DNA of 64,000 nucleotides, taken from NCBI GenBank assembly GCA_963701025.1, contig OY969557.1, forward strand, positions 36,849-100,848, given 5' to 3'. Under the pieces are notes generated by a model that saw nothing but the letters and a program-made list of their open reading frames with translations, was not told the DNA's origin and made no database searches. This stretch comes from an uncultured bacterium. Its GTDB lineage: Bacteria > Patescibacteriota > Minisyncoccia > Phycocordibacterales > PALSA-1337. Shown one piece after another: positions 4,791-59,357 of this stretch. Each line of letters begins with the position of its first letter. The first letter of the stretch is position 1. Position numbers and translations under genes: made by a program.

Positions 4791-4812
4791 GGATATCTGT
4801 TAGAATAAGGAA

Positions 4813-5817: not shown

Positions 5818-5880
5818 TTGATCTTCCTCTTCCTCCATTCTTTTATACCTTTATACATTTATACTTTTATACTATATTCC

Positions 5881-6696
5881 ATGTTCCGCTCCCGTGCACA
5901 GATCATCGCCACTCTCGGCCCGTCGTCGAATGACGTGAAGACCATCCTGGCCATGGCCCAGAAGGGCATGGACGTGGCCAGGCTGAATTTCTCGTGGGGC
6001 ACTTTCGCCGAACGCGCTCAACAGATCGCCTGGGTCAGGGAAGCCGAAAAAGCCCTCAATATAAGCCTCTATATCATGGCCGATCTTCCCGGACCTCGTG
6101 TCCAAAATGGCGCGGAACACAGCTATGATCACGCCGAAACATCGTCTCTCACCGCGCATGACAGGGAATGCATAGCTTTTGGCGTTGAAAATGGCGTCGA
6201 TTGCTTCGCCATGTCTTTCGTCGGTTCCGCCGCCGATGTCGAGTCCTGCAGGGCGGCCATCCGCGAGCGTGGCGGCACGCAGGCCGTCGTCGCCAAGATA
6301 GAAAGATCCGCCGCGGTCGAGCACATGAAAGAGATTATCACAGCGGCGGATGCCGTCATGGTCGCCCGCGGAGACCTCGGCCTCGAAGTTCCGGTCGAGC
6401 GCATACCGTTCGTCCAGGCCGATATCATCCGCGCGGCCAACGCTTCCGGCAAACCGGTCATCACCGCGACCGGCATGATGATGTCCATGATCGATTCTCC
6501 GGAGCCGACTCGCGCCGAAGTGTCCGACATCTCCGACGCCATCACCGAAGGTTCCGACGCCGTCATGCTCTCCGACGAAACGGCGAGAGGCAAGTATCCC
6601 GTCGAAGCTGTCGCCATGATGGAGAAGATCGTCTCCGAAGCCGAGAGGCACGCTGACGGCAGTCGAGTCTTCAATCTCCTCGAGAAGCGCCGATGA
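5881..6696 (+). CDS. pyk: pyruvate kinase, minimal form: A (TIM-barrel) domain only, lacking the B (lid) domain and the C-terminal effector domain
   Basis: IIATLGPSS...GMDVARLNFSWG...ADLPGPRV...AMSFV...VVAKIER...MVARGDLGLEVP...MLSDETARGKYP align to canonical PK core motifs. There are only about 20 residues between GPRV and the AMSFV strand where the ~100-aa B domain normally sits. The ORF ends right after the last A-domain helix, and its stop overlaps the next gene start (ATGA). Confidence 0.7.
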   Translation: MFRSRAQIIATLGPSSNDVKTILAMAQKGMDVARLNFSWGTFAERAQQIAWVREAEKALNISLYIMADLPGPRVQNGAEHSYDHAETSSLTAHDRECIAFGVENGVDCFAMSFVGSAADVESCRAAIRERGGTQAVVAKIERSAAVEHMKEIITAADAVMVARGDLGLEVPVERIPFVQADIIRAANASGKPVITATGMMMSMIDSPEPTRAEVSDISDAITEGSDAVMLSDETARGKYPVEAVAMMEKIVSEAERHADGSRVFNLLEKRR

Positions 6697-40901: not shown

Positions 40902-42104
40902 TTATATAGAATGCGCTAACTTCATTGTCAGTCCCAAATCAAACTTCCATACACCATTTTCTTCAACAAAACCCCATCGCATATTCCCAGAGACACCACT
41001 ACTACTAATCGTATTTAGTACTACTGAGACTTCATTATTATTGGTGTAATACGATGGTCTACAAGAACTATTGCAAAAAGTTATTTGCTTGATAGTTATT
41101 TCTTTAAAAGAAGTATTTAATTGACTGATCTTTAGTGTGCCTTGAGTTGCAGCTGAAGAGTATTCCAACACACCCTGTTGATCAGCATTTAGAAACGCTT
41201 GTTTGAAGGCATTCACCGTAGTTGTTATAGCTGAAATATCTGAATTAGATAATGTTCCAGGTGTATTACCTGATGGACTGCTTGAAACACTACTAGTTGT
41301 GCTAGCAATAGAATTAGTTTGGGTGGATGGACTTTGACCGAAAGTACTTATTATAGTCGGTGAAATATCAGTAAGAGTAAAATTATTTAACACATTATTT
41401 TCAAACCATGTAGTGAATTGGGAACTATCTGGTGTGTTGTCAACAAGAGTAGTAATCAAATAACAAGATGAGTTACTACGATAAATCAGATAGTTGCGAG
41501 TAGGGCCTAATCCTTGGTTAAACGAAGGTTGTCCAGGATTGGGATTAAAATAAACAGTTTTACCACTAATAGTACTGGTTGAGGCTTTGGAATTTTGGAA
41601 ACCACCTAAATATCCTGGACAAGTCTCGCCAATAGAATCAATTGTGAATGAAGCTGTAGCATTGCTATAAATACCTATGTCATAAAGATGAAATTGGAAT
41701 GTCGGACTACTACTTACAAAAATATGATCAGGATCGCTTGGTGCTTCTGTGAGAATTGACTGTCCAGGATACATAACTGAATATCCAGCATCATTCGAAT
41801 ACGATTTCTCTAGTTGGTTCGATAGAATGATTCTAGTTTTTTGATAATAAACTACACCTCCAATTAACACTAATAAGATAACTACAACAGTAATAGATAT
41901 GGAAAGAATATGAGATTTCTTTACGCCAGGTATAACATTAGAAGAAACTGGTACGCCTTGATTAACACCTAGAGTAGAAAAAACTTCGGTAATATCTGAA
42001 AGATTCCAACCTCCTGCAGAGATTAAATTTTGTTGTATCGTTTCTTTACTTAATCCTTGAGCTAACTGTTTCTTGATGTAATCAAGCAATTGGGGATTTA
42101 CCAT
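40902..42104 (-). CDS. AT-rich Ser/Thr/Asn-rich membrane-anchored surface protein (hypothetical)
   Basis: 400 aa, one TM helix near the N-terminus, composition strikingly lower in GC than flanking genes, adjacent to tRNA-Val. Confidence 0.45.
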   Translation of the reverse strand: MVNPQLLDYIKKQLAQGLSKETIQQNLISAGGWNLSDITEVFSTLGVNQGVPVSSNVIPGVKKSHILSISITVVVILLVLIGGVVYYQKTRIILSNQLEKSYSNDAGYSVMYPGQSILTEAPSDPDHIFVSSSPTFQFHLYDIGIYSNATASFTIDSIGETCPGYLGGFQNSKASTSTISGKTVYFNPNPGQPSFNQGLGPTRNYLIYRSNSSCYLITTLVDNTPDSSQFTTWFENNVLNNFTLTDISPTIISTFGQSPSTQTNSIASTTSSVSSSPSGNTPGTLSNSDISAITTTVNAFKQAFLNADQQGVLEYSSAATQGTLKISQLNTSFKEITIKQITFCNSSCRPSYYTNNNEVSVVLNTISSSGVSGNMRWGFVEENGVWKFDLGLTMKLAHSI

Positions 42105-42315
42105 AATAAGGAAAGTATATCAAATCTACACTTAATAAGCTTACATACTGTTGATATCGTTTACTCAGGAAAGTAATCAAGAAGAAAAAAGAAGAATGCT
42201 CGAAAAACTACTTTCGAACCTTTCGGTGAAAAATAAAAGTATGGCTAACTATCAATTCAAAAGTCCGTATCAGGTATTAGCAAAAACACCTAAAAATGCC
42301 AATATCGAACTATTG

Positions 42316-42388
42316 TGCGCGGTATAGGATTCGAACCTATGACCCTTCCCACGTCAAGGGAATGCTCTACCAACTGAGCTAACCGCGC
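42316..42388 (-). tRNA. tRNA-Val (anticodon GAC)
   Basis: The reverse complement gives GCGCGGTTAGCTCAGTTGGTAGAGCATTCCCTTGACGTGGGAAGGGTCATAGGTTCGAATCCTATACCGCGCA. The anticodon loop is TTGACGT. Coordinates are ±2. Confidence 0.8.
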
Positions 42389-42469
42389 GGATTATTTATG
42401 TGGGGACACTATAGCAGAAACGGCGGAAAAATCTATGGGAGCCGATGGCCGACAGTTTCAGCTCTGAAT

Positions 42470-43450
42470 CTATTGCGTAATCGTCTCCTTCTTCTCGATC
42501 TGTTGTCCATTCTTCGTATAGATGCTGTGGTCATTCTGGGCTAACGCGACGGTGATGATGTGCGTCCCCGGTTGAAGATCATCCAAGTGATACCACAGTC
42601 CGTAGACGACATGGAGCGTATCGTCGACATACAGATGGACATGGCCTTGATCAGGAACGGGTGCTCCGTTCACGTCTTGCGGAGTGAAGAGAAAGTTTGT
42701 GGTCGTGATATGCACGTCCCATCCTCCCATCGAAACCGGGTCTCGGGTGATGGTAAAATCGACCGTAGGAGTCGGATATGCCGCCGGAATCTCGTAAGTC
42801 TTGAGCATCATGCCCATGGGCGCCATGGCGCCCGGTCCCGTTTTTACGGACGATTGCGACGGGAATACGGTGACGAGGAGCATCGATCCCAAAACCACCA
42901 CCGTAAGGATCAAGACTCTGGTAAGGCGCGGTGTTGCCTCAGCGACGCTCTTATCTTTAGCGACATCTCTCCACAGGAAAAAATCCGGCCATCTCCGTGA
43001 TAAAAATGAATCCAAACTGTATGTCCTCCAGCTCGCCCCGACGAATAGGGCTATCAGGACAAATGCGTAAATGATCGCCGCGCCTATATCAGTCGAGCCG
43101 GGTCCATATGGACCGCCGAATCCTTCGCCTATAGACCAGATGAGAAGCGAGAAGGCTATGCCGACGATGAGTCCGACCCTAGTCAGCAGACCGAAGATGA
43201 GGCTTATGGCGATCGCCGATTCTATAAGCGCGACGAGCACGGCGAGCAGGTGTGGATGCCAGCTCGCTATTCCCGCCCACATATCTATCCAGGACATCAC
43301 CCATGCCGGCTGGCCGCTCGTCATCGAAGAGATCTGATCATATAGACCGTCGAGAAAAGCGGGTTGCCATTTCATGTACGCGTCGATCAGCCAAATAAAG
43401 CCGAAAGCGATGCGCAAGAGGGCAAACCGTCGTTCCATCTTCATGACCAT
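42470..43450 (-). CDS. DoxX-family membrane protein with a C-terminal extracytoplasmic beta-domain (HxHxxxDD motif)
   Basis: The N-terminal half has 4 TM helices typical of DoxX. The C-terminus reads GHVHLYVDDTLHVVYGLWYH. Confidence 0.45.
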   Translation of the reverse strand: MVMKMERRFALLRIAFGFIWLIDAYMKWQPAFLDGLYDQISSMTSGQPAWVMSWIDMWAGIASWHPHLLAVLVALIESAIAISLIFGLLTRVGLIVGIAFSLLIWSIGEGFGGPYGPGSTDIGAAIIYAFVLIALFVGASWRTYSLDSFLSRRWPDFFLWRDVAKDKSVAEATPRLTRVLILTVVVLGSMLLVTVFPSQSSVKTGPGAMAPMGMMLKTYEIPAAYPTPTVDFTITRDPVSMGGWDVHITTTNFLFTPQDVNGAPVPDQGHVHLYVDDTLHVVYGLWYHLDDLQPGTHIITVALAQNDHSIYTKNGQQIEKKETITQ

Positions 43451-43471
43451 AGTATAGCGTATATCGTGAAA

Positions 43472-44002
43472 TTAAGGCCGTGCATGAGCGCACCGCTTGC
43501 AAACCCCGAAGAGCTCGAGCGAATGGGTGTTGATGCTTTGGAATGTTGAATGCTTCAAGATGCCTCTAGTCGCATTCTCCACATCGCATCCCTCAAAATC
43601 CTCGATCATGCCGCATTCCGTGCATACGATGTGGTGATGATGGTCCAGGGCGAGCTCATAATACGCCGATTCTTTATGTATATCCAAGCGTCGTATGATG
43701 TCGGCCGCTTCAAAAGAGGCGAGCGTGCGGTATATGGTCACAAGGTTGACGTCTCTTTTCTTCAGCTTCTCGCGGATATGATCCGCGTTAATGGGTCTGC
43801 GGTCGGCAGAAAATACATCAAGGATAGCCCACCTAGCCGGTGTGTTCTTCAGGCCATTTTCTTTGAGCATGGCGGAGAAGTCTTTTGACATATACGAACA
43901 TATTAAGCCATCGGCCTCTGTGGATGTCTTGTTATATTCAGCGTACTGGCGCAACAGCGTATTCAACTTTCCTTTTGTTTGCGGTGATTGAGAATGCTTC
44001 AT
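43472..44002 (-). CDS. Fur-family metalloregulator (probably Zur)
   Basis: ARWAILDVF...NLVTIYRTLASFEAADIIRRL...HHHHIVCTECG...CKRCAH. Confidence 0.75.
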   Translation of the reverse strand: MKHSQSPQTKGKLNTLLRQYAEYNKTSTEADGLICSYMSKDFSAMLKENGLKNTPARWAILDVFSADRRPINADHIREKLKKRDVNLVTIYRTLASFEAADIIRRLDIHKESAYYELALDHHHHIVCTECGMIEDFEGCDVENATRGILKHSTFQSINTHSLELFGVCKRCAHARP

Positions 44003-44003
44003 G

Positions 44004-44837
44004 TTATTTCTTTTTCCCTACAATAATGGTATTGATAATGTCTTTTGATCTTCCGCTTCTGCGCACCACATCGATATTTTTAAGATGCTCGGCCGTGATC
44101 TCTGGGTAGAGGAGCGTGCCAAGATCGCTCACGCTTCGCATGACGATATGGGTGTTTACGGCACTCTTTCCGGCGATATGATCGATTATCTTTTTCTTTT
44201 CCTCGTCAGTCTCTCCCGCCAGAGCGGCAATGAAAATCGTCTGATATTTTGAGATATTTACCATATCGAGGATATTCCCCTTTATGACGCGGATTCTCTC
44301 CGAGAGACCCGACTTATTGACAAGGCTCTGCGAGAGTTTGCACGCCTCATCATCCATATCGAGATTGTCTATCAAGGCATCGCATTTTCTCGCCATCATG
44401 ATCGATGAGAGGGGTAGCGGTCCAGAGCCCACAAAAAGCACGCTATGCCCGTCATGTATGTCGCATAATCTCATGCTCTCGATCTCAAGGTCGGTCATGC
44501 GTTCGTAGTTCGAGTAATACGGAAAGAAGCGCAATATTTTGTCCGCGTCTCTCGACCGGAGAGCGCTTTTTACCCAGAATAGTTCGAGCTCCGTCTCGGC
44601 CTTTGCCGACATTTTACGGAGCCCGTTTTTAATCGAGCGTATTTCTTTGTCCTCCAAAATGTCTTTTGAATGATCCGCTGGAGTGTCGAGGACTATGCCC
44701 ACTAGTTCTCTAAAAGTGGAATTTATCTTTTCCGACGGTTCAAGGCTCTTTGCAGACAAAAGCTTCCCGTGAATGCCGAGAATTTTATCCCTTTTCTTTT
44801 GTGAAATTGCCCGTGTCATTTTGTATAAAAACTGCAT
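44004..44837 (-). CDS. nicotianamine synthase-like protein (NAS/CntL-like aminobutyryl transferase)
   Basis: LFVGSGPLPLSSIMMA and TIFIAALAGETDEEKKKII match the conserved NAS SAM-binding and core motifs. Confidence 0.6.
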   Translation of the reverse strand: MQFLYKMTRAISQKKRDKILGIHGKLLSAKSLEPSEKINSTFRELVGIVLDTPADHSKDILEDKEIRSIKNGLRKMSAKAETELELFWVKSALRSRDADKILRFFPYYSNYERMTDLEIESMRLCDIHDGHSVLFVGSGPLPLSSIMMARKCDALIDNLDMDDEACKLSQSLVNKSGLSERIRVIKGNILDMVNISKYQTIFIAALAGETDEEKKKIIDHIAGKSAVNTHIVMRSVSDLGTLLYPEITAEHLKNIDVVRRSGRSKDIINTIIVGKKK

Positions 44838-44873
44838 GATCCTGATCGGTCAAAGATCATGCAGGTGGATCTA

Positions 44874-46538
44874 TTAATCGTTACCACACGGTCTGCTCAT
44901 GAGTTTGATTGCGATTGTTTCGGATTCGCGAATCCTCTTCAGAGCCTCTTGCCACTTGACGCGAAGTTCTGGCGTGTATGCAAGAGATAAGCAGTGTTCA
45001 GCGGCTCTCCGTGCGTGCGACGGATAATCCCCATGCTCGATACCATAGAGCAAGACTTCTAGGATTTCGTCACATTGCCACGATGCCCGCTCAGGATCGG
45101 AGTTAAGGCTCTTGAGGGAGTGAATCCCTTCGGCCGCCATAGCTCCAGGTTTCAGCCTTTCGACTGTCGAGACGAGTCCCTGTCCGAAGAAGTCTCCGTG
45201 GCGGTTTGTCCACCACACCATCGATACGCCGAGCTCGCGCTGGTTGGTCGCAAGTTCATGGGGGACGATCTCGGCTTTCCGGTTTCTCACGATCTCCGCG
45301 CACGAAACCCAATATTCCATACAGTGCTTCAGGACCCTCGGGAACCATTCGTCAATGACGTACGGTCTCCGCGACATCTCCTTCACGAGTTGGAGCTCTT
45401 CCGGGTGAGTGATGATGCTGATCCCCTTACTGGAAGGGAGCACTATCGCCTCATGAGGGATCTTTGCCAGGATGGCCTTGATGGCTTCGACGGTCTCTTC
45501 CCGAGTCGCAGTCTCCTTGCGTAGAAGCTGGTAGCCTTGGCCTTCCTCGCCTGGCATTTTCTTCATGGCAACAAGTGTTGCCAATTCAGGAAGATCCTGC
45601 TTGATATCCACTTTCCTTGAAGTATAGAACGTCACGAACCGCCGTGAGTCTTCGACTGTCTGCTCCCAATCGCCGTGCACCTCGTTGAAAAGATGACCGT
45701 CGATTGCTCCCTTGATCCTAAGCAGGAAATCTTTCCCGGCAAACGCCTTTCGGAGATCGTAAAGAGTCGTTTCCTGACCAAGATCGTAGAAGTAGGGATA
45801 CATATTATGAACATGATGTTCGTGATGAGCGTGATTATGGTGATGACCGCAACTGCATCCCGCGTGATGCTCATGGCCATGATGATGGTCCGTCCGACTT
45901 ACCGAAAGCCCCATTCTCCGTTTCGCCCCTTTCTCAAAGAGGTTAAGGATTAGATCCGGAATCTCGGGACCATTCGGAATATGGACGACCGGGATACCAG
46001 GGTTCTCCTGTGCCACGAATTCCAGCACGCCACCCGATTCATCCCAATCCAAGAGGGTGTGAATCTGGTGCATGTGCTTGGTAAGGCCCACTGCCAAGGT
46101 TGCTGCCCTTACTTGGCTCTTGATCACATCGGCATATCTTACAAGATCGAGCCGGTGGTGCTTTTGCGAAAGCAGGCAGAGGATATGGAACGGATACGGG
46201 CACGATTCGAGGAAATCCCTAGTCTCGTTTCCGGCCGTGATGCCGAAGCCTTCCAAGAATACCCAAGTGATATGCGATTTCTCGAGTTTCGCGAGGGTGT
46301 CCTTGAGGTCCGCGGTATCGGAACAAGTAAAGCATCCGTTGGTCATTGCGACCACTTCGGCTGACCTGCGCGCGAGCTCGCCGTCGATCAGGGCACCCTC
46401 GTCATTTACGACGTAGGCGACCTTATCTCTGGTGGGGAATCCACGGGATTCCAGAGCCTGAATTACGTTCAGGACAAACGTCGTCTTGCCGGCTCCCAGG
46501 GGGCCGACAGCGGCGAATAACTGCATGGCTTTTTTCAT
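44874..46538 (-). CDS. COG0523-family metallochaperone GTPase (CobW/YjiA/ZigA-like) with a His-rich segment and a ~200-aa C-terminal extension
   Basis: P-loop GPLGAGKTT; NGCFTCS (CxCC-like) motif; His-rich tract HHHGHEHHAGCSCGHHHNHAHHEHHVH. Confidence 0.7.
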   Translation of the reverse strand: MKKAMQLFAAVGPLGAGKTTFVLNVIQALESRGFPTRDKVAYVVNDEGALIDGELARRSAEVVAMTNGCFTCSDTADLKDTLAKLEKSHITWVFLEGFGITAGNETRDFLESCPYPFHILCLLSQKHHRLDLVRYADVIKSQVRAATLAVGLTKHMHQIHTLLDWDESGGVLEFVAQENPGIPVVHIPNGPEIPDLILNLFEKGAKRRMGLSVSRTDHHHGHEHHAGCSCGHHHNHAHHEHHVHNMYPYFYDLGQETTLYDLRKAFAGKDFLLRIKGAIDGHLFNEVHGDWEQTVEDSRRFVTFYTSRKVDIKQDLPELATLVAMKKMPGEEGQGYQLLRKETATREETVEAIKAILAKIPHEAIVLPSSKGISIITHPEELQLVKEMSRRPYVIDEWFPRVLKHCMEYWVSCAEIVRNRKAEIVPHELATNQRELGVSMVWWTNRHGDFFGQGLVSTVERLKPGAMAAEGIHSLKSLNSDPERASWQCDEILEVLLYGIEHGDYPSHARRAAEHCLSLAYTPELRVKWQEALKRIRESETIAIKLMSRPCGND

Positions 46539-46718
46539 TCAGTCTCTCCTAATGGTTGGTTGTGAAATGATCAATCAATGCAAATGTTTGCATCTGAGTA
46601 GCACTGTACACTACAATTTATCTAATTGCAAATGGTTAACACTTGAGTTGCCATACTATTTATGAAAAAGGATTTCAGATTGATTTTGAAATCTGTTTAA
46701 TCTGTTATACTTCAGTCG

Positions 46719-47882
46719 ATGAGACTTCAGACTAAACAGGCCATCTCTCTGGCGATCTTTCTTGCCGGGAGCTTTCTTGTATGTGATACCGCCCACGCAC
46801 AACAGCCTAGTTCTGACCAGACGACCGTGATGAAGGCGCAAGTCATCCAGGTCATAAGCCAGAAGATGGAATATGTTCCAAGCACGACCACTGATCAGAT
46901 GCTCCAGGTAAGGATCATCAACGGTTCTGAAGAAGGGAAGACCGTAACCGTCGAAAACGACTCGATCATCTTCAAGGCGGGTGATATCGTCTATCTGACC
47001 CATCAGGTCGATTCTCTTGATAACCTAGATACGTATTATATTTCCGACGCGTATCGCTTGCCTTGGATATACGGTCTCGTCGGGCTTTTTGTTCTTTGCG
47101 TGCTCATGGTCGGCGGCAAGCAGGGATTACGAGGGCTGGTCTCTCTCGCCTTGAGCTTCTTCGTGATCGCGTACGTGCTTTTCCCCTCGATCATCCACGG
47201 GTTTTCTCCGGTTCTCATGAGCATCGGAGTGGCGTCGCTCATGATCATACTCGGCTCGTATATCACGCACGGTTTCAACAAGGTCACGACGTCCGCGGTG
47301 ATCGGCATGGTTCTGACCATCATATGCACCGGTCTTCTCGCGTATATATCGATCCACGGCGCCAAATTGACCGGTTTTTCCAGCGATGAATCCCTGTCCC
47401 TTAACATAGATACCAACGGATCGATCGATCTTGCCGGGCTTCTTCTTGGCGGTATCATCATCGGACTGCTCGGCGTGCTATATGACGCCGCCATCGGCCA
47501 GGCGGTCGCGGTGGACGAACTGCACAAGATCGGACCTCATTTATCGAAGAATGTCATATTCAAGCGGGCCCTTCGCATGGGACGTGAACATATTGGCGCT
47601 CTCGTCAACATCCTGGCCATTGCCTATGTCGGCGCTTCGTTGCCCCTCCTGCTCCTATTCTATCAATCCGGCGCTGATTTCAGTCTGACCGTCAATAGCG
47701 AGATATTTGCCACGGAGATCATACGTGCAATGGTCGGTTCTATAGGCTTGATCTTGGCAGTGCCCGTTACGACCGCCATCGCTGTCTTCATGCTGATAAA
47801 AAGGAAGAAAGCTAGCCTCGAGGATCCGCACATCATCGCCGGTGAAATGCGGAAAGTCGATGAGTTAGAGCATGTGCATTGA
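46719..47882 (+). CDS. YibE/F-family membrane protein with an N-terminal secreted domain, divergent from the COG0523 gene
   Basis: Signal peptide + ~110-aa extracytoplasmic domain + YibE/F-like multi-TM region. Confidence 0.5.
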   Translation: MRLQTKQAISLAIFLAGSFLVCDTAHAQQPSSDQTTVMKAQVIQVISQKMEYVPSTTTDQMLQVRIINGSEEGKTVTVENDSIIFKAGDIVYLTHQVDSLDNLDTYYISDAYRLPWIYGLVGLFVLCVLMVGGKQGLRGLVSLALSFFVIAYVLFPSIIHGFSPVLMSIGVASLMIILGSYITHGFNKVTTSAVIGMVLTIICTGLLAYISIHGAKLTGFSSDESLSLNIDTNGSIDLAGLLLGGIIIGLLGVLYDAAIGQAVAVDELHKIGPHLSKNVIFKRALRMGREHIGALVNILAIAYVGASLPLLLLFYQSGADFSLTVNSEIFATEIIRAMVGSIGLILAVPVTTAIAVFMLIKRKKASLEDPHIIAGEMRKVDELEHVH

Positions 47883-47902
47883 TTTGAAAGGAAAGGTTCA
47901 TG

Positions 47903-47974
47903 TAGCCCTACGGGGAATCGAACCCCGATTACAGCCTTGAAAAGGCCGTGTCCTGACCGTTAGACGATAGGGCC
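47903..47974 (-). tRNA. tRNA-Glu (anticodon TTC)
   Basis: The reverse complement is GGCCCTATCGTCTAACGGTCAGGACACGGCCTTTTCAAGGCTGTAATCGGGGTTCGATTCCCCGTAGGGCTA. The anticodon loop is TTTTCAA. Confidence 0.75.
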
Positions 47975-48038
47975 ATAGCGTGGCACCACAGTATCATTTT
48001 TTTGAAAAATCGGCAAAAGATGCTAAGGTTGTACGCAC

Positions 48039-48128
48039 GGAGAGGTGGCAGAGTGGTCGAATGCACCGCTTTCGAAAAGCGGCAGGGGCGCAAGCTCCTC
48101 GGGAGTCCGAATCTCCCCCTCTCCGCCA
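48039..48128 (+). tRNA. tRNA-Ser (anticodon CGA), type II with long variable arm, CCA encoded
   Basis: GGAGAGGTGGCAGAGTGGTCGAATGCACCGCTTTCGAAAAGCGG...CCTCTCCGCCA. Confidence 0.85.
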
Positions 48129-48146
48129 GCTGAAATCAATGGTCTA

Positions 48147-49070
48147 TTATTGTGCGTGTAAATACAGATAGATGTCTTCTACTGCCTTGACGGCGTCTCC
48201 GGCGGCTATGTTGTTCTGGTGGAACAAGCCGTCTGTGGCGTCTCCGGCGGCCCAGACGCCATCCACTGACGCGCGCTGATCCTTCGGGTCCGTGACGATG
48301 CGATTATACTCGTCCAGTTTGACGATGTCCTTGATGAAACCGGTATTCGGTAGAGAGCCGATCTCCGCGAATATGCCTGTCACTGGTAACTCCGTGTCCT
48401 TGCCGGTCTTGGCATCAGTGTAGACGATAGACGCCACGAATTTTCCGCCCTTGACCTCTTTCGGTATCGCGTTCGTGACGATCTTCACCCGGGGATTCTT
48501 GGAGACGGCCTCTATCGTGCCCGGATCAGCCTTGAAGTTTTCGGAACGATTCAAGAGGGTGACGCTCTTGCAGTAGGCCATGAGCTGGGCGGCCGTCTCG
48601 AAAGCCGCGTTGCCTCCGCCCACGACCGCCACGTCCTGGTCGGCATATAGCGGGCCATCGCAGGAAGCGCAGTAGACCACGCCTTTATTGTCGTATTCGG
48701 CTGCGCCTGGGATGGGAAGCTTGCGCCTGCTCGAGCCGGTCGTGACCAGAACTGTCTTGGCCTCGTATGAGCCCTTATCAGTCGTTATGTTGAATCCTGT
48801 CGAAGCCTTGGCGACGCCCTTCGCCAGTTCTCCTTCCTTGAAATCTATTATGCCGGTTGCATAAGCCTTGGCATGTGCTTCCAGTGCTTTCGTCAGGTCC
48901 AGGCCGCTTAGCTTGACTGTGCCGATCCAATTCTCCACGCCTTCGGAGACATAACTCTGGCCGAGCCAGTCCTTGGTTATGAAAACTGTCCGCAGGCGCT
49001 TCCTGGCGGCATATACCGCCGCCGCCGCTCCCGCCGGTCCGCCGCCGATGATAGCAAGGTCGTAGGTCAT
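48147..49070 (-). CDS. trxB: thioredoxin-disulfide reductase
   Basis: AIIGGGPAGAAAAVYAAR...CASCDGPLY...VAVVGGGNAAFE. Confidence 0.85.
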   Translation of the reverse strand: MTYDLAIIGGGPAGAAAAVYAARKRLRTVFITKDWLGQSYVSEGVENWIGTVKLSGLDLTKALEAHAKAYATGIIDFKEGELAKGVAKASTGFNITTDKGSYEAKTVLVTTGSSRRKLPIPGAAEYDNKGVVYCASCDGPLYADQDVAVVGGGNAAFETAAQLMAYCKSVTLLNRSENFKADPGTIEAVSKNPRVKIVTNAIPKEVKGGKFVASIVYTDAKTGKDTELPVTGIFAEIGSLPNTGFIKDIVKLDEYNRIVTDPKDQRASVDGVWAAGDATDGLFHQNNIAAGDAVKAVEDIYLYLHAQ

Positions 49071-52912: not shown

Positions 52913-54148
52913 TCATCTACCCCACCAATCAGTCTCCGCCCTCTTCATGTACTTGGCCAATTGATCGAGAGGCACGACATCCTGGGCGTGAGTATCGGTG
53001 CGGCGGACGATGGCGGTCTTCTCGACAGCCTCCTTCTTTCCCATGACTATGGAATAGGGAGTGTGGTGTTTTTCGTTAGCCGACACTTGGGCGCCGAGGC
53101 GGTCTTTAGCCAGGCACAGATAGAGGGGGATCTTGACCTGGCGGAGGCGCTCGATGACGTTGAGGGATATGAGCTTGGACTCCATGCCGAGCTGCATGAA
53201 CGAGGCCACCGGCCGCTTCATCTTGGATACCGGTTTGCGGAGGGACGCGCTCTCGCCCTTCACCAAGAGCGACATGCCGAGGCCTTGAATGTCACGCTTC
53301 ATGCCGAGCCTGCGGGCCAGGCCGTTATAACGCACGCCTATACCCAGGATGCGCTGGTCTTTGGCCGTGGCGGACGTGTCCACGATGGCGAATATAGTCT
53401 CGCTACAATACTTGCGGTTGCCGATGAGGCTGTTGTTGATGGTGTAAGGGATATCGAGGGTCTCGCAATATTCGAGAACTTCCTCTAGATGGCGACGACT
53501 GGTCTCGGAAAGGAAGTCGATGGAACGCGGCGCCTTGCCGTTGAGCTCTTTCTCGGATTCGTCGTGCGACGCGAGCAGGTCGAAAGCGTCGCGCTTGAAG
53601 AGCTGGCGCGCCTCCGGGGTCATGTCGTTGATGTTCTTGCGGTAGTAGGCGGTGAGCTCGCGGGCGAAGCGAGCTATGGAGTCGCGGTCGCCGAGGGAAT
53701 TCACTTCCACCGCCGTCTCGTTGTAGCCCTCTTCGGCGAGCATAGCCCGGGCGGCCTGGATGAGAGTCGCTTCGGCGATGGAGCCGGACGCGCCAAGGAT
53801 CTCAAGGTCGGCATAGCGGTGATAGCCGCTTCTCTTCACCGAGCCCTTGTACGGATCCTTGAAATAGAGCATGACCGGCTGTGGCTCGCTGTGCCAAGAG
53901 GTCTCTTGGTAGGTGCGGATGAGAGCGATCTTCTCCTCGGCATGGAGAGGCAGGCGGCCCTTCTTGCCCATCTCGTCGTCGACGAAGTCTCCTTCCATTA
54001 TGCCTTTGGCCGCGTCGAGGTCGCTCTTCTCGATGGCTGGGCTTTTGGCCGGCCTGAAGCCGTAATAGACGGCCGTCTCGCCGATCTTGTCGAGGTGCTC
54101 GTACGATATGAATTTACCGTCGGATTTCTTTTTATTCGGTTTTTTCAT
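52913..54148 (-). CDS. histidyl-tRNA synthetase-family protein (HisS-like, with class-II anticodon-binding domain; catalytic motif 2 divergent)
   Basis: GRLPLHAEEKIALIRTY aligns to the GRSLTLRPEGT region. FKDPYKGSVKRSGYHRYAD is a degenerate counterpart of FRYERPQKGRYRQFHQ. IGVRYNGLARRLG...GLGMSL aligns to the motif-3 region. The C-terminal ~90 aa fits the HisRS anticodon-binding domain. Confidence 0.5.
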   Translation of the reverse strand: MKKPNKKKSDGKFISYEHLDKIGETAVYYGFRPAKSPAIEKSDLDAAKGIMEGDFVDDEMGKKGRLPLHAEEKIALIRTYQETSWHSEPQPVMLYFKDPYKGSVKRSGYHRYADLEILGASGSIAEATLIQAARAMLAEEGYNETAVEVNSLGDRDSIARFARELTAYYRKNINDMTPEARQLFKRDAFDLLASHDESEKELNGKAPRSIDFLSETSRRHLEEVLEYCETLDIPYTINNSLIGNRKYCSETIFAIVDTSATAKDQRILGIGVRYNGLARRLGMKRDIQGLGMSLLVKGESASLRKPVSKMKRPVASFMQLGMESKLISLNVIERLRQVKIPLYLCLAKDRLGAQVSANEKHHTPYSIVMGKKEAVEKTAIVRRTDTHAQDVVPLDQLAKYMKRAETDWWGR

Positions 54149-54182
54149 GTTTGTATCATTCGAATTGGTCCGTCGATTCGCA

Positions 54183-54782
54183 TTACAATTTTTCCTCTCC
54201 CGGCAGTATCGATATGTTATTTATGGGCAGGAGCCGGACGATCGGCCTACCGATGATGAAATGCCGATCGAGCGGACCCCAGACGCGCGAGTCGGAGCTC
54301 TGGGCGCGATTGTCGCCCATGACGAAATAGTGCGTGGCATCCATGGTGGTGGTGGCGATATTGTCGTATGACGAGTGGTCTGCCGCTACGAAGGAGCTGT
54401 CCACGATGAAGCCTTTGGGATGCGCCGCATTCGCCACGAATACTTTGCCGTCCGTGACGGAGAAGCTCTCTTTCGGAAGGACGATGATGCGCTTTATATA
54501 GTAGATCGAAGGATCATTCGGATACTCAAAGACGATGACATCTCCCCTCTGCGGCGGCTCGAAGCGATAGGTCAGACGATCTACAATGAGAAATTGGCCC
54601 GTGGCGAAAGTCGGATCCATAGAGGCCCCGTTCACGATGAATGGCTCGGCCACCAGCCACCGTATCGGCAGGGCTATTATGAGGGCGATGATGATGACCT
54701 GTACCCACTCGCGCACGGCATGCCAGAAGGGATGCTTATTCGGGGTACTGGCTTGTGGTGCCGCCTCAGAGTCAGGGCTCAT
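54183..54782 (-). CDS. lepB: signal peptidase I
   Basis: NGASMDPTF (catalytic Ser)...YIKRIIVLP (Lys box)...GDNRAQSSDSRVWGP. Confidence 0.85.
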   Translation of the reverse strand: MSPDSEAAPQASTPNKHPFWHAVREWVQVIIIALIIALPIRWLVAEPFIVNGASMDPTFATGQFLIVDRLTYRFEPPQRGDVIVFEYPNDPSIYYIKRIIVLPKESFSVTDGKVFVANAAHPKGFIVDSSFVAADHSSYDNIATTTMDATHYFVMGDNRAQSSDSRVWGPLDRHFIIGRPIVRLLPINNISILPGEEKL

Positions 54783-55212
54783 GATTGGCGTATTGTACTA
54801 CCAAGAGGGGTTTGACACAAGAGGTTGGAGTGTGATGTGGGCTTTTTATGGAAAATTTTTCTATGATTTTGGGCGGATAGGAAGACGGATAAGAAAGCGG
54901 ATAAGAAGGCGCAGTGAAGAAAAAAATTGAATGAGGAGATTTTAGCGAGATAGTGAGGGGTGGTTCTGTCTCCTAAAGGTGGTCGTGTGGGATGTTATAC
55001 GAACTGAATTATGTAACTATTTGTGATATATCACTGTCTCTTCTAACGAATCAATCAAAAGGGTCCTATTAAGGTGAAAACGGCTCAAAACAAGGGTATA
55101 TTGATATTTTTAGTATAAAATGACACTTTTATGTCAAAAGTGCTTGACTTTTAAACTTTAATAGAATAGTATATAAGTATTATTACAAAATAATGTAATT
55201 TTAAACAAATCC

Positions 55213-56484
55213 ATGTTAATCACAAGAATTAAAGCTAGTAATTTCTATGGGATAAAAGACCCAATAGAAGTATCTTTCACCGAAGGGGGTGAGAAAGAAA
55301 AAATTGGATATGCGAACAAAGGAAAAGAGAGAATCTCGCTTATCTCTGGTTTTTATGGTGCAAATGCTTCAGGCAAAAGCACTGTCTTAAATATCATTGA
55401 CACAATAATTCGAATTATGCTCGCACGACAGCAAGAATTTGTACTCGCACCTAATGGTATAAAGCAAGAGACTATTATCTGTCTTCCCAATTACCATAAA
55501 AGTATGGTATCAAAACCGATCGTGATGGAGATGGATTTTATAATTAGTGAGGATAAATACAATTATTCGATCTCAATTATAAATGAGGGTAAAGAAATTG
55601 CAGAAGAAGTCTTATATAAAAACAATAAAAAAATATTCAATAGAAAGGATAATGCTATTTCTTTTGAATCAAATGTGGAAAAAAAGATGGGCGATTTAGC
55701 AAAAAATATTGTTGCACCAAAGAAGTCATCTTTTCTCTCTGTCGTTTTAGATGAAAGCTCTGATATATCAGTGTTCGCTAATCTCAAGGAAGAAATAGGT
55801 ATTTCTGAGATTAAACATATAAAAAACAAGATCTGCTTTATCACTGATAAAAGATCAGTTCAGATGGGGCAAAACAACATAAATGGTTTAGTAGCTTTTG
55901 CTGTTGATTATCTTAATGACATCAAAAATCAGAATGCAAAACTTAGTGCTGTTAATTCCATAGTTAAATATTTTGAACCTTCCTTTGAAAGTCTTATCAT
56001 TAAAAAAGAGGGAGACAACAATCAGGTCAATAAGTCTTTTGCTTTCACCTATGAAGCAAAATATAGCGACTTCTATAAGAATCTCGGCATTATGGAACTT
56101 TCTGCTGGAACAAGAGAGCTTATTTCTTATATAGGCGATGTTCTTAAGATCATAAAGTCAGGCGGCGTTATTATATATGATGAGACAAGCAAGTATTACC
56201 ATCCGGATATGGAAATGGCTATATTAAATCTCTTCAAAGATAAAGATATAAACAAGCATAATGCTCAGATATTTTTCTCATCGCATAATCATGAGACTTT
56301 TGATCTTTTACAAAATGATCAAGCTCATATCTTAGAAAAAAAGGACAATAATATAACCGTTGCAAAAGTATCGGACTACGATGTAAAGGAAAGAGATAAC
56401 GTAAAAAGAATATATCGTCTTGGCTCTCTTGGCGGAATTCCTAATACTATTGATTTCAATAGAATAATAAATAATCTCTTATAA
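55213..56484 (+). CDS. OLD/ABC-type ATPase (AAA_15/AAA_21-like; RloA/AbiLi/AriA-like)
   Basis: N-terminal IKASNFYGIKDPIEV...GFYGANASGKST (Walker A), LSAGTRELISYIGDV (ABC-signature-like), VIIYDETS (Walker B) and FFSSHNHE (H-loop). Strongly AT-rich. Confidence 0.7.
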   Translation: MLITRIKASNFYGIKDPIEVSFTEGGEKEKIGYANKGKERISLISGFYGANASGKSTVLNIIDTIIRIMLARQQEFVLAPNGIKQETIICLPNYHKSMVSKPIVMEMDFIISEDKYNYSISIINEGKEIAEEVLYKNNKKIFNRKDNAISFESNVEKKMGDLAKNIVAPKKSSFLSVVLDESSDISVFANLKEEIGISEIKHIKNKICFITDKRSVQMGQNNINGLVAFAVDYLNDIKNQNAKLSAVNSIVKYFEPSFESLIIKKEGDNNQVNKSFAFTYEAKYSDFYKNLGIMELSAGTRELISYIGDVLKIIKSGGVIIYDETSKYYHPDMEMAILNLFKDKDINKHNAQIFFSSHNHETFDLLQNDQAHILEKKDNNITVAKVSDYDVKERDNVKRIYRLGSLGGIPNTIDFNRIINNLL

Positions 56485-56488
56485 GCTT

Positions 56489-57055
56489 ATGAATAAAAAG
56501 AAAAGCTTTAAAGTATATTATTTATTGATCAGTGAAGGGACCACTGAATTCAATCTATTCGGTTACTTAACGACCAAAAAATTTAAAGAGGATTTTGTAA
56601 AATCTAACATTCAGTTCAGTATCAAGGTAGAAATTGTAGAAATCTCAGTGTCTCAAGGTAAATTAGGTGGTGTTAGTGATGTTAAGGGCTTTAAATCAAA
56701 GTACGATTTAATTAAAGAAAGATATGACGGGCAAAAACGTTTTTTCCTCCTAGACAAAGACCTCGATGATTCTTCAGCTATAGAAGCTCTTATCAAACAA
56801 AATAATGATATTGTGCAATTTATAGAACATAATTCAGAATATCTATTATTGAAACTTTCTGGTAAGAATCCTAAAGATCCTTCTAATTTCACCAACCTGG
56901 CTGAATTTAGGAACTATTGCAAATCTGAATTTCAAAAGCATTTCAGCAAAAAGGCCTCTGATTTCAAAGACACTGACTTTGATTCCATATTTAACAATAT
57001 TACAGATAAAGAAATAAAGGCCAGTTTTATTGAGTTATTCTCAACCCTATCATAA
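56489..57055 (+). CDS. RloB-type TOPRIM-like protein (AbiLii/AriB-class nuclease partner)
   Basis: YYLLISEGTTEFNLFGYL (the vcEGxTE TOPRIM glutamate motif), FFLLDKDLDD (DxD-like motif) and IEHNSEYLLLKLSG (a SNPxFExWLLLH-like C-terminal motif). Starts 5 bp after the ATPase stop. Confidence 0.65.
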   Translation: MNKKKSFKVYYLLISEGTTEFNLFGYLTTKKFKEDFVKSNIQFSIKVEIVEISVSQGKLGGVSDVKGFKSKYDLIKERYDGQKRFFLLDKDLDDSSAIEALIKQNNDIVQFIEHNSEYLLLKLSGKNPKDPSNFTNLAEFRNYCKSEFQKHFSKKASDFKDTDFDSIFNNITDKEIKASFIELFSTLS

Positions 57056-57148
57056 AGGGGTGTTTAAGAAGAAGATACACTGACCTCTCCTTTTATTTCA
57101 AATGATTATATCCTTTCGGCTGTTTATGCGATCATCATCGTAGTTGCG

Positions 57149-57355
57149 TTGGCGATCAGGCGAGAAAAGAACGATATCGCGATCTTGCTTTTCGGCTTCT
57201 TCATCATGATCGTCTCTGAATACCTCTTTATCTCCACCGGCGTCGAGACCTTCCAAAAAAACAGCTTATTCGGCATAATGCCCATGTGGCTCCCGTTCCT
57301 GTGGGCCTATGGATTCGTCGCCATAAAGAGATCAGTAGAAATCCTCGGCCGATAA
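57149..57355 (+). CDS. possible small membrane protein (frame open from 57068, no ATG)
   Basis: About 95 codons, hydrophobic, native-like GC content. Speculative. Confidence 0.25.
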   Translation: MAIRREKNDIAILLFGFFIMIVSEYLFISTGVETFQKNSLFGIMPMWLPFLWAYGFVAIKRSVEILGR

Positions 57356-57404
57356 GTGCTCTCGACTTTACACTTTGCATTTTTAACTTTAAACTGAATA
57401 CACT

Positions 57405-57998
57405 ATGCCTTACATCATCGCCGGCCTCGGCAATCCCGGAAAAGAATATGAGGATACGCGCCACAACACTGGCCGTATCGTCTTGGATGCGGTTAGGAAA
57501 GAATTTGGCGGAGAATTAGAATTCGACAAGAAGCTGAACGCGCAGATCGCCGAAGTGAAGATCGGCAAAGAAAAAATCATTTTAATAGCACCGGACACGT
57601 TCATGAATAAGTCCGGCAAGGCCATCGGCCAATTAGTCAAGAGTGTAAAAGCTGCCGAGAAGCTAATAGTCATCTACGATGATTTTCAATTGCCCATAGG
57701 CCGTGCCAAGATTTCCTATAACAAGAGCTCCGGCGGCCACAACGGTCTGGAATCCGTCATCAAGGCAGTCAAGACCGAAGCCTTTCCGCGCATCCGTATC
57801 GGTACTGCCGCTGCTGATGCCAAAGGCAACGCAAAGGTTCCTCATGGCGACGACAAGATAGAGAAGTTCATACTTGGCGATTTCAAGCCGGATGAATTGA
57901 AAGTATTGAAGAAAGTCGCCAAAAGAACTGCCGAAGCCGTAGGGATGATCGTCAAAGAGGGAAGAGAGAAGGCAATGTCGGTCTTCAATCAGGGGTAA
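57405..57998 (+). CDS. pth: peptidyl-tRNA hydrolase
   Basis: IIAGLGNPGKEYEDTRHNTG...SSGGHNGLESV. Confidence 0.85.
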   Translation: MPYIIAGLGNPGKEYEDTRHNTGRIVLDAVRKEFGGELEFDKKLNAQIAEVKIGKEKIILIAPDTFMNKSGKAIGQLVKSVKAAEKLIVIYDDFQLPIGRAKISYNKSSGGHNGLESVIKAVKTEAFPRIRIGTAAADAKGNAKVPHGDDKIEKFILGDFKPDELKVLKKVAKRTAEAVGMIVKEGREKAMSVFNQG

Positions 57999-59357
57999 TC
58001 ACTTCACCCCCACGAACGACAACGCCATCTTTTGCTCCTTGGGATCGAAGACGGTTATTTTGAACGGATAAGTCTTGCCGAGCTCGAGAGCCTTGCGGAG
58101 CTTCTCTTCGGAACCGAACTCGGAGACGTGGACCAGACCGGCCACGCCTTCCTCGATGGAGGCCAGGGCGCCGTGCTTGTTGAACTTGATGATGACGCCG
58201 GTCACCGACATGTCCTTGGCGTATTTTTTGGCCGCTTCTTTCCACGGGTTTGGCCGGAGCTGTTTCATCGACAGGGAGATCTTGCCGTCCTTGATTTCTA
58301 TGATCTTGACCTTCACTTTCTGGCCGACCTTGACGAAATTCTTCGGGTTTTCCACTAGGCCCCAGTCGATCTCGGAGATATGCACGAGGCCCTCGAGGCC
58401 CTCCTCCAGCTTTATGAAGACGCCGAAATCCACGACGCCGGTGGCGGTGCCTTCGACCTCGTCGCCGATCTCGTACTTGCTGACGATCTTTTCCTTCTCT
58501 TTGGACTCGGAACCCTTCTCGGAGAAGATGAGCTTGCCTTCCTTGGGATCGGCCGTGATGATCGAGACCGACAAGCGCGTTCCCACGAGCTTTTTCAGCT
58601 CGTCGAGGATCTTGTCCTTGTCGCCGTCGCCCACCTTGGGATAATGGTCGCCTTTGAGCTGGGAGGCCGGCAGGAAGCCGACGATACCCTGCCAATCCAT
58701 GAGAAGGCCGCCCTTGTTGGCTTCCTTGACCAGGATGTCGAGCACCTTCTTCTCCTTGATGGCTGATTCGGCTTCGCTCCAAATGAGCGCCTGACGGGCT
58801 TCCTTCAATGACAGCTCGTAATAACCTTCGGGATGCGCATCATCGACGATCTTGGCGGCGATGGTGTCTCCGAGGTTTATCTTCTTGATGACGTCGCGGG
58901 CGATGATGAATTCGCGGCCGTATATGATGCCGGTGCCGAAGGGTGCCAGGTCGACGAATATGGACGACTTCTCTATGGCGATGACCGGGCCTTCGACGAG
59001 ATCGCCCACCTGTGGCGGGTTCTTCATGGAACCGACCATCTTGCCCATGAGAGTCAGTTGCTGCTCGTCGGAGAGCTTCATGGCCTCGTTCCTCTTCGCT
59101 ACGCGTCGAGCCTCCGACGCCTCTGCGTCGGTCATGCCGGGATGATTGGCGGCTACGCGTGTGCGGGCGGCCGGTGCAGGCGCCGCTTTCTTTTCTTGGG
59201 CTTTCTTCTCGGTCTTTTCCGGCACTTTTTCCGAGACCTCGGTTGACTTTTCGCTTGCTTTCTTAGTCAGGCCGATCTTTTCATCCGCCTCACTTTTTAT
59301 ATTTTTCGATTGATCTTTCTTCGAACCGGACAGAGTCTCCCTTAATTTTTTGAACAT
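57999..59357 (-). CDS. rpsA: 30S ribosomal protein S1 (four S1 domains, Lys/Glu-rich N-terminal extension)
   Basis: Repeated S1-fold motifs (VGDLVEGPVIAIEKSSIFVDL..., VGTRLSVSIITADPKEGKLIFS..., VEGTATGVVDFGVFIKL...). Confidence 0.8.
   Translation of the reverse strand: MFKKLRETLSGSKKDQSKNIKSEADEKIGLTKKASEKSTEVSEKVPEKTEKKAQEKKAAPAPAARTRVAANHPGMTDAEASEARRVAKRNEAMKLSDEQQLTLMGKMVGSMKNPPQVGDLVEGPVIAIEKSSIFVDLAPFGTGIIYGREFIIARDVIKKINLGDTIAAKIVDDAHPEGYYELSLKEARQALIWSEAESAIKEKKVLDILVKEANKGGLLMDWQGIVGFLPASQLKGDHYPKVGDGDKDKILDELKKLVGTRLSVSIITADPKEGKLIFSEKGSESKEKEKIVSKYEIGDEVEGTATGVVDFGVFIKLEEGLEGLVHISEIDWGLVENPKNFVKVGQKVKVKIIEIKDGKISLSMKQLRPNPWKEAAKKYAKDMSVTGVIIKFNKHGALASIEEGVAGLVHVSEFGSEEKLRKALELGKTYPFKITVFDPKEQKMALSFVGVK

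Follow-up and report, generated by a model that had tools for sequence, protein, structure and literature searches.

In the Cnt systems (staphylopine, pseudopaline, yersinopine and bacillopaline; CntK/L/M with CntA-F/CntE or CntO/I), a nicotianamine synthase (NAS)-fold enzyme that transfers aminocarboxypropyl (ACP) groups from S-adenosylmethionine (SAM) belongs to a metal-repressed, Zur/Fur-regulated operon linked to a transporter. Enzymes with the same fold are the plant and fungal NAS and the thermonicotianamine synthase MtNAS (3FPE). COG0523 proteins such as YjiA, ZigA, Zng1 and CobW, in which a P-loop G3E domain, a His-rich linker and a CobW_C-like domain follow one another, likewise come under Fur-family regulation. 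Here we describe a locus that brings together a NAS gene, a gene for a G3E-family GTPase, a Fur-family regulator gene and a divergent yibE/F gene. It lies in a stretch of 64,000 nucleotides (64 kb, hereafter the window, to which all coordinates refer) of contig OY969557.1 from an uncultured bacterium of the candidate phyla radiation (CPR/Patescibacteria), a group with very small genomes that is thought to be host-dependent for most metabolites.

On balance, we favour the reading that the locus is a metal-starvation operon for making and handling a nicotianamine-type chelator, and that it is a rearranged copy of a module found in other CPR genomes. An earlier note, made from the sequence alone, had pictured a metal-regulated locus in a small-genome bacterium with a true NAS-family enzyme at its core, and the comparisons below support that picture. 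In contrast to the Cnt systems, the module has no CntM opine dehydrogenase, ABC importer or known exporter, and it contains the G3E GTPase, YibE/F and an uncharacterised protein, here called geneC; one variant CPR locus does share a CntK_N-like gene with them. The window NAS groups with the plant and actinobacterial clade, not with the CntL clade. With the plant and fungal enzymes and MtNAS it shares the full-length Pfam match, the catalytic Glu and Tyr and the GSGPLPL motif, but its identity to plant NAS is only 28-34% and it sits in a bacterial operon with a chaperone GTPase. The GTPase appears to have the COG0523 domain order and differs in its C-F-T-C motif at the position of CxCC, a degenerate NKxD motif, an extra 230-aa C-terminal domain and its obligate pairing with NAS. 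The operator has the half-site and 5-bp spacing of the Nur box of Streptomyces coelicolor, but its centre is conserved too, giving a 7-1-7 or 11-1-11 palindrome like those of classical Fur boxes, and the regulator has neither the Ni-site His residues nor the M-site His33 of Nur and is not especially close to it in sequence. The system appears to work like a nicotianamine-type metallophore locus (Cnt; archaeal and plant NAS) combined with a Fur-controlled COG0523 chaperone, and by these tests it is not a Cnt, canonical COG0523, Zur or Nur system.

A conserved module around a NAS-family enzyme

The four open reading frames (ORFs) lie where the earlier note had placed them (Table 1; the 'Fur' ORF spans 43472-44002 on the minus strand), and Pfam profile searches (FUR, NAS, cobW, YibE_F) returned the identities that it had assigned to them. 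The window region 42353-47931 was recovered at 99.96% identity and with no gaps in an independent Logan assembly (L030, run ERR11718638), indicating that the local sequence is not an artefact of one contig alone.

Table 1. Positions in the window of the genes, protein domains and control elements of the locus
Feature	Position	Strand	Basis or remark
NAS-family enzyme, SAM-dependent 3-amino-3-carboxypropyl transferase, 277 aa	44004..44837	-	PF03059
G3E-family COG0523-like P-loop GTPase, 554 aa	44874..46538	-	PF02492, hhalign, YjiA, AlphaFold2 (AF2)
GTPase, G domain	residues 1-205		AF2 model of the GTPase, predicted local distance difference test (pLDDT) 85
GTPase, disordered His/Cys-rich loop	residues 205-243; 45810-45926	-	Low pLDDT
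GTPase, CobW_C-like beta domain with RxKG	residues 245-320; 45579-45806	-	hhalign; AF2 beta domain 245-306
GTPase, new C-terminal domain	residues ~326-554; 44877..45563	-	AF2 pLDDT 92; small alpha/beta unit and helical bundle
YibE/F-family membrane protein, 387 aa	46719..47882	+	PF07907, E=1.7e-65, 221 bits vs 27.2, profile 1-240/241
geneC remnant, codons 1-31	43910..44002	-	Alignment A1; tblastn E down to 7e-9 with 13 geneC proteins
Fur-family metalloregulator proper, Met38-Pro176	43472..43891	-	PF01475; winged helix, HHHH, Cys4
Distal Fur-type box TGCAAATGGTTAACA	46627..46641		2 mismatches to TGCAA-N5-TTGCA; 78 bp from yibE/F start codon
-10-like hexamer TACAGT	46603..46608	-	17 nt downstream of TTGCAA
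Proximal Fur-type box TGCAAATGTTTGCA	46579..46592		Arms ATGCAAA/TTTGCAT 46578-46593; between -10 and GTPase start codon
DoxX-like membrane protein, 326 aa	42470..43450	-	DoxX N-terminus E=1.6e-4; DUF4399-like C-terminus E=0.011, below cut-off

The central enzyme matched the NAS profile PF03059, the check proposed for it, over its full length (E=1.6e-49, 169.2 bits vs a cut-off of 27.1; residues 17-277 on profile positions 10-272 of 276), and a structure sequence search paired it with MtNAS (3fpe) at E=1.7e-11. E85, Y111 and G137-S-G-P-L-P-L143 were invariant in a 16-sequence alignment (A5) of CPR, Chloroflexi, actinobacterial, plant and archaeal enzymes. The equivalents of E85 and Y111, E81/Y107 in MtNAS and E77/Y106 in AtNAS1, are needed for activity, and AtNAS1 also depends on E73 and on a four-residue VGMD loop, both of which are absent from MtNAS (PMC10248798). 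The window enzyme has E81 at the position of AtNAS1 E73, four residues before the catalytic Glu, and a GETD loop instead of VGMD; a Glu of the E81 type and a four-residue loop are common to the window, plant and actinobacterial enzymes, and MtNAS is without them. Judged by the profile match and these residues, the enzyme is a genuine member of the NAS family.

The idea of a CntL-type opine metallophore enzyme did not hold: the CntL equivalog NF033601 scored 44.3 bits vs a cut-off of 350, and the CntL chains in the Protein Data Bank (PDB) were matched only at E=6e-6 over 100 residues. A search for the partners expected of such an enzyme found no CntM-type opine dehydrogenase among the Pfam hits of the called neighbours in the window or in the loci whose genes were listed; a CntK_N-like gene was present near one short-form variant locus. 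We infer that the NAS product is probably an oligo-ACP compound, of the nicotianamine type rather than an opine. For nicotianamine itself, with three ACP units and an azetidine ring, the plant-type E81 and the four-residue loop are indirect pointers.

Related loci (labelled L001-L030; about 25 were compared) were gathered through homologues of the GTPase and then annotated against the window proteins, and the counts given here are of non-redundant long-form loci, which have a GTPase of the window type. The results showed a module of GTPase, NAS and geneC with Fur and often YibE/F. In all 17 loci having downstream sequence the gene next after the GTPase was NAS, and geneC followed NAS in 12 of 15, so that the description of NAS as a stand-alone gene had to be given up. 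A Fur-family gene was found no more than 1 kb away in about 11 loci and a YibE/F gene in nine. Fur was divergent from GTPase-NAS-geneC-YibE/F in L005, L008 and L012; a Fur-YibE/F pair was divergent from GTPase-NAS-geneC in L007, L011, L015, L016, L017, L022 and L025; YibE/F preceded GTPase-NAS-geneC on the same strand in L014; and L009 had the order GTPase-NAS-x-geneC-Fur. That the genes stay together despite the shuffled order is good evidence that they are functionally linked. By the titles of the related loci (Candidatus Saccharibacteria, Parcubacteria, Paceibacteria and Paceibacterota metagenome-assembled genomes (MAGs), and one 2.5-kb contig binned as 'Gammaproteobacteria'), the module has so far been found almost only in CPR/Patescibacteria MAGs. 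NAS homologues outside the CPR had unrelated neighbours, namely a cupin, a methyltransferase and ABC exporters in Chloroflexi and an ATP-grasp enzyme in Jiangella, implying that the NAS-GTPase pairing is specific to the CPR group. The literature search returned no description of a NAS-G3E-geneC-YibE/F module or of a NAS paired with a COG0523/G3E protein, and nothing on nicotianamine synthesis in CPR/Patescibacteria; many subscription papers lay outside its coverage, and a prior mention of either is possible.

A short-form variant has Fur beside NAS (sometimes fused to GNAT), a canonical 302-aa COG0523 protein and geneC, with or without YibE/F. This COG0523 protein keeps NKxD or TKxD, lacks the His tract and the C-terminal domain, and has CICC (L027 and L029) or FICC (L028) at the CxCC position; the accompanying geneC is 179-204 aa long or is fused to a class-I methyltransferase-like domain (439 aa). 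The stretches in question, which cover these fusions and the genes around them, are 1242-2587 and 6001-9568 of L027 and 4770-7615 of L028. The CntK_N-like (histidine-racemase N-domain) gene stands together with GNAT and histidyl-tRNA synthetase genes 4 kb upstream of a short-form module. The fusions and the CntK_N-like neighbour hint at tailored, possibly His-derived, products. The strict pairing of NAS, GTPase and geneC holds in both variants despite their unlike architectures, which suggests a GTPase acting on or with the NAS product.

Two side observations concern individual loci. L014 carries, beside its long-form module and in the region 4948-6370(-), a second G3E GTPase (~370 aa) and a short Fur-like ORF, with a perfect TGCAAGTAGCTTGCA box at 6366, and this second GTPase may belong to the same regulon. 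In L017, NAS is split into ORFs 4052-4705 and 4709-4897; the split gene (4052-4897) could be either a frameshift or stop in a metagenome contig or a decaying copy.

The GTPase matched cobW/HypB/UreG (PF02492) at E=1.8e-13, over residues 11-105 of 554 only. Pfam CobW_C (PF07683) was undetected, and hhalign aligned residues 8-291, through the RxKG region, to a CobW+CobW_C protein at a probability of 98.9. The best genuine PDB hit of the family profile was YjiA (1nij, E=3.9e-11). The proposed COG0523 identity stood as regards Walker A (GxxGxGKT, here GPLGAGKTT) and the E-x-x-G switch (EGFG), both invariant, probably stood as regards the architecture, and fell short at two motifs commonly held to define the group, CxCC (CFTC) and NKxD (TKHM). 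Other invariant motifs were NGCFTC, TK and R274-x-K276-G. The GTPase is therefore called a COG0523-derived protein and not a standard member, and with CxCC and the Asp of NKxD missing, neither the metal-site chemistry nor the GTP specificity of COG0523 can be assumed for it.

The expected His-rich tract was borne out at residues ~215-245, and C230, H234 and H244 of the loop were nearly invariant in the family alignment. The C-terminal extension, estimated beforehand at ~200 aa, measured about 230 aa. The family is small (42 near-full-length homologues in a word-indexed search), and out of 1.84 billion proteins a profile of the C-terminal domain picked out 82 cluster representatives; the domain sits C-terminally in those of ~470-570 aa, shorter ones possibly being fragments. 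Invariant in the domain were THPE (377-380), Q383, K386, RR (390-391), YW (409-410), E435, WW (442-443) and W487. It matched no Pfam family and had no specific match among solved structures or folds, and homology to geneC was ruled out by hhalign (probability 0.2%).

In YibE/F, an N-terminal signal or transmembrane (TM) segment is followed by an extracytoplasmic domain of ~85 aa and the polytopic YibE_F domain. Its link to the locus, proposed on the basis of the window, gained support: homologues recur in the module in L005, L007, L008, L011, L014, L015, L016, L025 and L028, in three gene orders. We propose that it transports the chelator or its metal complex.

Operator, regulator and candidate metals

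Aligned upstream regions showed a conserved palindrome, TGCAA-N5-TTGCA, upstream of the GTPase gene, with the extended consensus TAnATGCAAATgATTTGCAttTA; the long box, written TAnATGCAAAT-g-ATTTGCAttTA, is a perfect 11-1-11 palindrome in L015 and L025. All 19 of the non-redundant loci had, in the 250 bp ahead of the GTPase, one or more boxes with at most one mismatch, and boxes were enriched 72-fold there (23 hits in 4.7 kb upstream vs 13 in 190 kb elsewhere). Loci in which Fur is not a neighbour (L002, L004 and L010) also have the box before the GTPase; in short-form loci it lies between Fur and NAS. Usually two boxes are found ~49 bp apart, the distal one holding a -35-like TTGCAA, with TAnnnT 17 nt on and the proximal box before the start codon.

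In the window, the region of the distal box includes the -35-like TTGCAA of the GTPase operon (46626-46631), and a corresponding degenerate box, TGTTAATGATTTGCA, occupies the same position in L001, L005, L012 and L013. The distal and proximal boxes form a direct repeat (D1) with a spacing of 48 bp. The TTGCAA-17-TAnnnT geometry recurs in L001, L005, L007 and L008; these putative promoter elements were read from the alignment and are below the consensus-scan threshold. The proximal box is the single match in 64 kb, where 0.04 would be expected, and its sequence is identical in L030; the only other boxes in the 64 kb are three matches with one mismatch, as chance predicts. In L001, L005, L007, L008, L015, L016, L025 and L026, the GTPase is preceded by perfect orthologous boxes at a distance of 56-81 bp. 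Such a layout is typical of repression by promoter occlusion.

A different operator had been suggested before, an inverted repeat CAGATT-N8-AATCTG at 46683-46703. The repeat exists, at 46676-46695, in the yibE/F leader, but it was in none of L001-L013 searched and is one of 10 inverted repeats in 221 bp. It was rejected as the operator, being confined to the window, and as RNA it does not stand out, with a leader fold of z=-1.6 and no Rfam match. In the same leader, the yibE/F start codon (46719) falls inside a 12-nt inverted repeat at 46693-46739 (CTGTTTAATCTG / CAGACTAAACAG; arms 92% complementary, loop of 23 nt), which could hide the codon in the transcript; the fold of the leader as a whole lacks significance, and the leader is unique to the window. 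In L011 (7145) and L022 (2140), a perfect box TGCAAAGCATTTGCA heads the fur-yibE/F operon at its 5' end, with 860 bp separating it from the GTPase, which indicates fur autoregulation and direct control of yibE/F in those loci.

The regulator matched PF01475 at E=2.4e-25 (89.5 bits vs 23.1). The HHHH...CTEC site pointed out beforehand is present, together with CKRC, and the Cys4 structural site that these form (C127-TE-C130 and C168-KR-C171) is conserved in orthologues. The regulator had been taken to be Zur-like and zinc-sensing, and here the comparison gave no support, its scores being nearer Fur/PerR than Zur. NCBIfam equivalogs, all far below cut-off, gave 75 bits for PerR, 75 and 68 for Fur and 24 for E. 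coli-type Zur (NF008646, 23.8 bits vs 167), the only kind of Zur that NCBIfam models, so that other Zur lineages are possible. The closest solved structures were F. tularensis Fur (2.6e-18), H. pylori Fur and B. subtilis PerR (Fur/PerR range 1e-18 to 1e-16), with Zur structures at ~1e-13 and S. coelicolor Nur (3eyy) at 1.3e-9.

Residues were mapped on HpFur, BsPerR and EcFur through the alignments to these structures and an alignment of orthologues, with the usual HpFur metal-site assignments. An S3-like site (H, H, E, H) is present, and an S2-like site retains Glu116 and Asp135 together with two His. Among close orthologues, a Cys stands two positions ahead of the Pro70 position (DC[KR]P), where the window has Arg. 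Of the Nur site, only the His126 equivalent (H160) and the HHHH motif remain. Naming the metal from these residues was tried and abandoned, the mixed ligand set fitting none of Fur, PerR, Zur and Nur. As rough weights, zinc is the foremost candidate, though a tentative one, nickel or cobalt comes behind it, and iron or manganese stands level with that or slightly lower.

These data bear on two alternatives to our reading. The locus may be a zinc-starvation (Zur) regulon in which a Zn sensor controls a ZigA/Zng1-type zinc-chaperone GTPase and a NAS whose product is a zincophore or an intracellular zinc buffer. Zur is the usual regulator of COG0523 paralogues that have His-rich tracts, CntL-type metallophores are used for zinc uptake, the GTPase appears to be of COG0523-type architecture (hhalign, YjiA), and the Cys of the orthologues near the Fur N-terminal His position is a soft ligand compatible with Zn. 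However, the Zur model scores far below its cut-off and below those of Fur and PerR, which are also the nearest structures; Glu116 stands five positions before the HHHH motif, where Zur presumably has Cys, and the window has Arg for the orthologues' Cys; and the CxCC zinc-site motif is changed to CFTC. We regard a zinc regulon as possible but doubtful.

A nickel/cobalt system, with a Nur-like regulator, a HypB/UreG-like Ni GTPase and a NAS product that binds Ni/Co as staphylopine does (Cnt standing for cobalt-nickel transport), seems less likely still. Long His-rich tracts are typical of Ni chaperones, and Foldseek of the G domain returned HypB first (2hf8, zinc bound). The half-sites and spacing of the box, including the A/T flanks, match the footprinted Nur box tTGCaa-N5-ttGCAA (PMC2691836). 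Yet the Nur Ni-site His70/His72 are absent, the M-site His33 is Pro, Nur is a weaker sequence match to the regulator than Fur or Zur, the G domain profile is nearer YjiA than HypB, and no Ni enzyme was seen in the window.

Proposed chelator pathway

Our favoured reading of a metal-starvation operon can be set out as follows. When metal is plentiful, a dimer of the Fur-family regulator would occupy the two boxes, which overlap the -35 and transcription-start region of the GTPase-NAS operon and also lie in the control region shared with the divergent yibE/F (in the window) or fur-yibE/F (elsewhere). When metal is scarce, the operon would be derepressed, and NAS would turn SAM into a poly(aminocarboxypropyl) chelator of the nicotianamine type. 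With its His/Cys-rich loop and C-x-T-C motif the GTPase would take up metal and pass it on in a nucleotide-dependent manner, either between the chelator and client proteins or to a client on the new C-terminal domain. YibE/F may carry the chelator, or the complex that it forms with the metal, over the cell's single membrane, in either direction. A bolder version, which we hold to be unlikely, is that the derived COG0523 GTPase, through its C-terminal domain (THPE/RR/WW site), and geneC bind the NAS product, that nucleotide hydrolysis loads or strips the metal, that YibE/F is a new class of metallophore transporter and that these episymbionts make their own (possibly genuine) nicotianamine.

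Several findings weigh against the favoured reading. No CntM-like, exporter or receptor genes typical of nicotianamine-type metallophore systems are present at the locus, and YibE/F is a family without known function, the literature search having found no paper on it. In the GTPase, GCxCC is absent, all 28 aligned members having an invariant NGCFTC with Thr for the second Cys, and only T153 and K154 of the NKxD region (TKHM in the window) are invariant, Asp being present in 5 of 28 members. In the regulator, the N-terminal His ligand (HpFur H42, EcFur H33, PerR H37, Nur H33) is replaced by Pro70, and the Nur Ni-site is missing, RRLDIH standing where Nur has H70-A-H72. Finally, in the window copy geneC is deleted and the spacer of the proximal box is 1 bp short (5-4-5, against 5-5-5 in every other locus); this copy may be impaired, or may work in a reduced or altered form.

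It is also conceivable, though improbable, that the module is not for a metallophore at all, and that NAS, geneC and the new domain make or attach an aminocarboxypropyl molecule (a symbiosis factor, an azetidine-type metabolite or a cofactor), with metal control being incidental. Neither geneC nor the C-terminal domain has a known function, and the NAS-GNAT and geneC-methyltransferase-like fusions and the CntK_N-like gene point to further tailoring chemistry. CPR bacteria do carry other SAM-cyclising enzymes, of which AzeJ belongs to a different enzyme family from the window NAS (PMC11794875). Against such a role, three of the five module genes are in metal-handling families (Fur, NAS and a G3E GTPase whose loop is rich in His and Cys), all of the loci carry a Fur-type box, and known metallophore pathways likewise include CntK, GNAT and tailoring steps.

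The window copy, its surroundings and implications

Elsewhere geneC encodes a ~150-aa uncharacterised protein that matches no Pfam family, has no relative in the PDB and lacks a named homologue among 89 proteins. In the window, codons 1-31 of the 176-aa 'Fur' ORF are 72% identical to residues 1-29 of the L005 geneC, and alignment of the Fur proper starts from Met38 (43891), with 51% identity to the 136-aa divergent Fur of L001. By this comparison the ORF is a chimera of the geneC N-terminus and Fur. The remnant, which is fused in frame to fur, retains the junction typical of NAS-geneC, with 1 nt between the NAS stop codon and the next ATG, and not the 2-bp gap previously reported. No second geneC copy was found elsewhere in the 64 kb by tblastn with 13 geneC proteins. 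The simplest history would be that an ancestor whose order was GTPase-NAS-geneC-Fur, of the L009 type, underwent an internal deletion. Translation may start at either 44002 (176 aa) or 43891 (139 aa).

That the module is a decaying, non-functional relic in this genome, as the geneC cut to 31 codons, the deviant proximal operator spacing and the several split-looking housekeeping genes of the window might indicate, is no more probable than the non-metallophore role, for none of the GTPase, NAS, Fur and YibE/F ORFs is truncated and every family-invariant residue is in place, GTPase, NAS and box persist in L004 and L010 although these loci too have no geneC beside them, and the locus is reproduced gap-free in the second assembly.

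The gene for a DoxX-like protein begins 21 bp past fur on the same strand and may be co-transcribed with it; no homologue was found at E<1e-4 in the other long-form loci L001-L026, and the gene is therefore placed outside the conserved module. Housekeeping genes around the locus include TsaD, FtsZ, FtsA, gyrB, PheRS, enolase, RNR and MurJ. A 5.5-kb block of DoxX-like/Fur/NAS/GTPase/YibE/F is flanked by tRNA-Val(GAC) (42315-42388(-)), tRNA-Glu(TTC) (47902-47974(-)) and tRNA-Ser(CGA) (48039-48128(+)), and an Rfam scan of 42000-48200 gave these three tRNAs and no other match. The GC content of the block (0.49-0.51) is below that of the right-hand region (0.55-0.58); given the frequent rearrangement of the module between genomes, this tRNA-bracketed block could be an insertion or recombination hot-spot. 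Just past tRNA-Val, in a segment of 0.435 GC, a 400-aa protein (40902-42104(-)) with one TM segment, long Ser/Thr-rich tracts and no Pfam or NCBIfam match is probably a CPR surface protein.

Farther away, iPGM appears as two overlapping ORFs (21313-21912 and 20318-21334, within 20318-21912(-)), an EF-G-like protein has domains II-III and the C-terminus on separate ORFs, and MurJ spans profile positions 2-273 of 451 only (regions of the split EF-G-like/MurJ genes: 15866-17184(+) and 13361-15038(+)); these could be either assembly frameshift errors or true pseudogenes. The stretch 54001-58000, with a GC of 0.39-0.41 vs about 0.53 elsewhere, holds an AAA_21/AbiEii-like ATPase (55213-56484) and may be a mobile or defence island.

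The box provides a defined operator for a CPR Fur-family regulator, with which regulons could be mapped in uncultivated organisms, and testable functional hypotheses follow for geneC, for the C-terminal domain of the GTPase and for YibE/F, all of them families of unknown function. If our reading is true, nicotianamine-type chelator biosynthesis would extend past the Cnt and archaeal paradigms, and a conserved, metal-regulated operon that spends SAM on a chelator would mean that CPR bacteria invest in their own metal acquisition or buffering. Were the bolder version to hold, the GTPase would be the first known case of a chaperone whose substrate is a small-molecule chelator and not a protein client, and the locus would be the first evidence of genome-minimal episymbionts synthesising their own, possibly genuine, nicotianamine.

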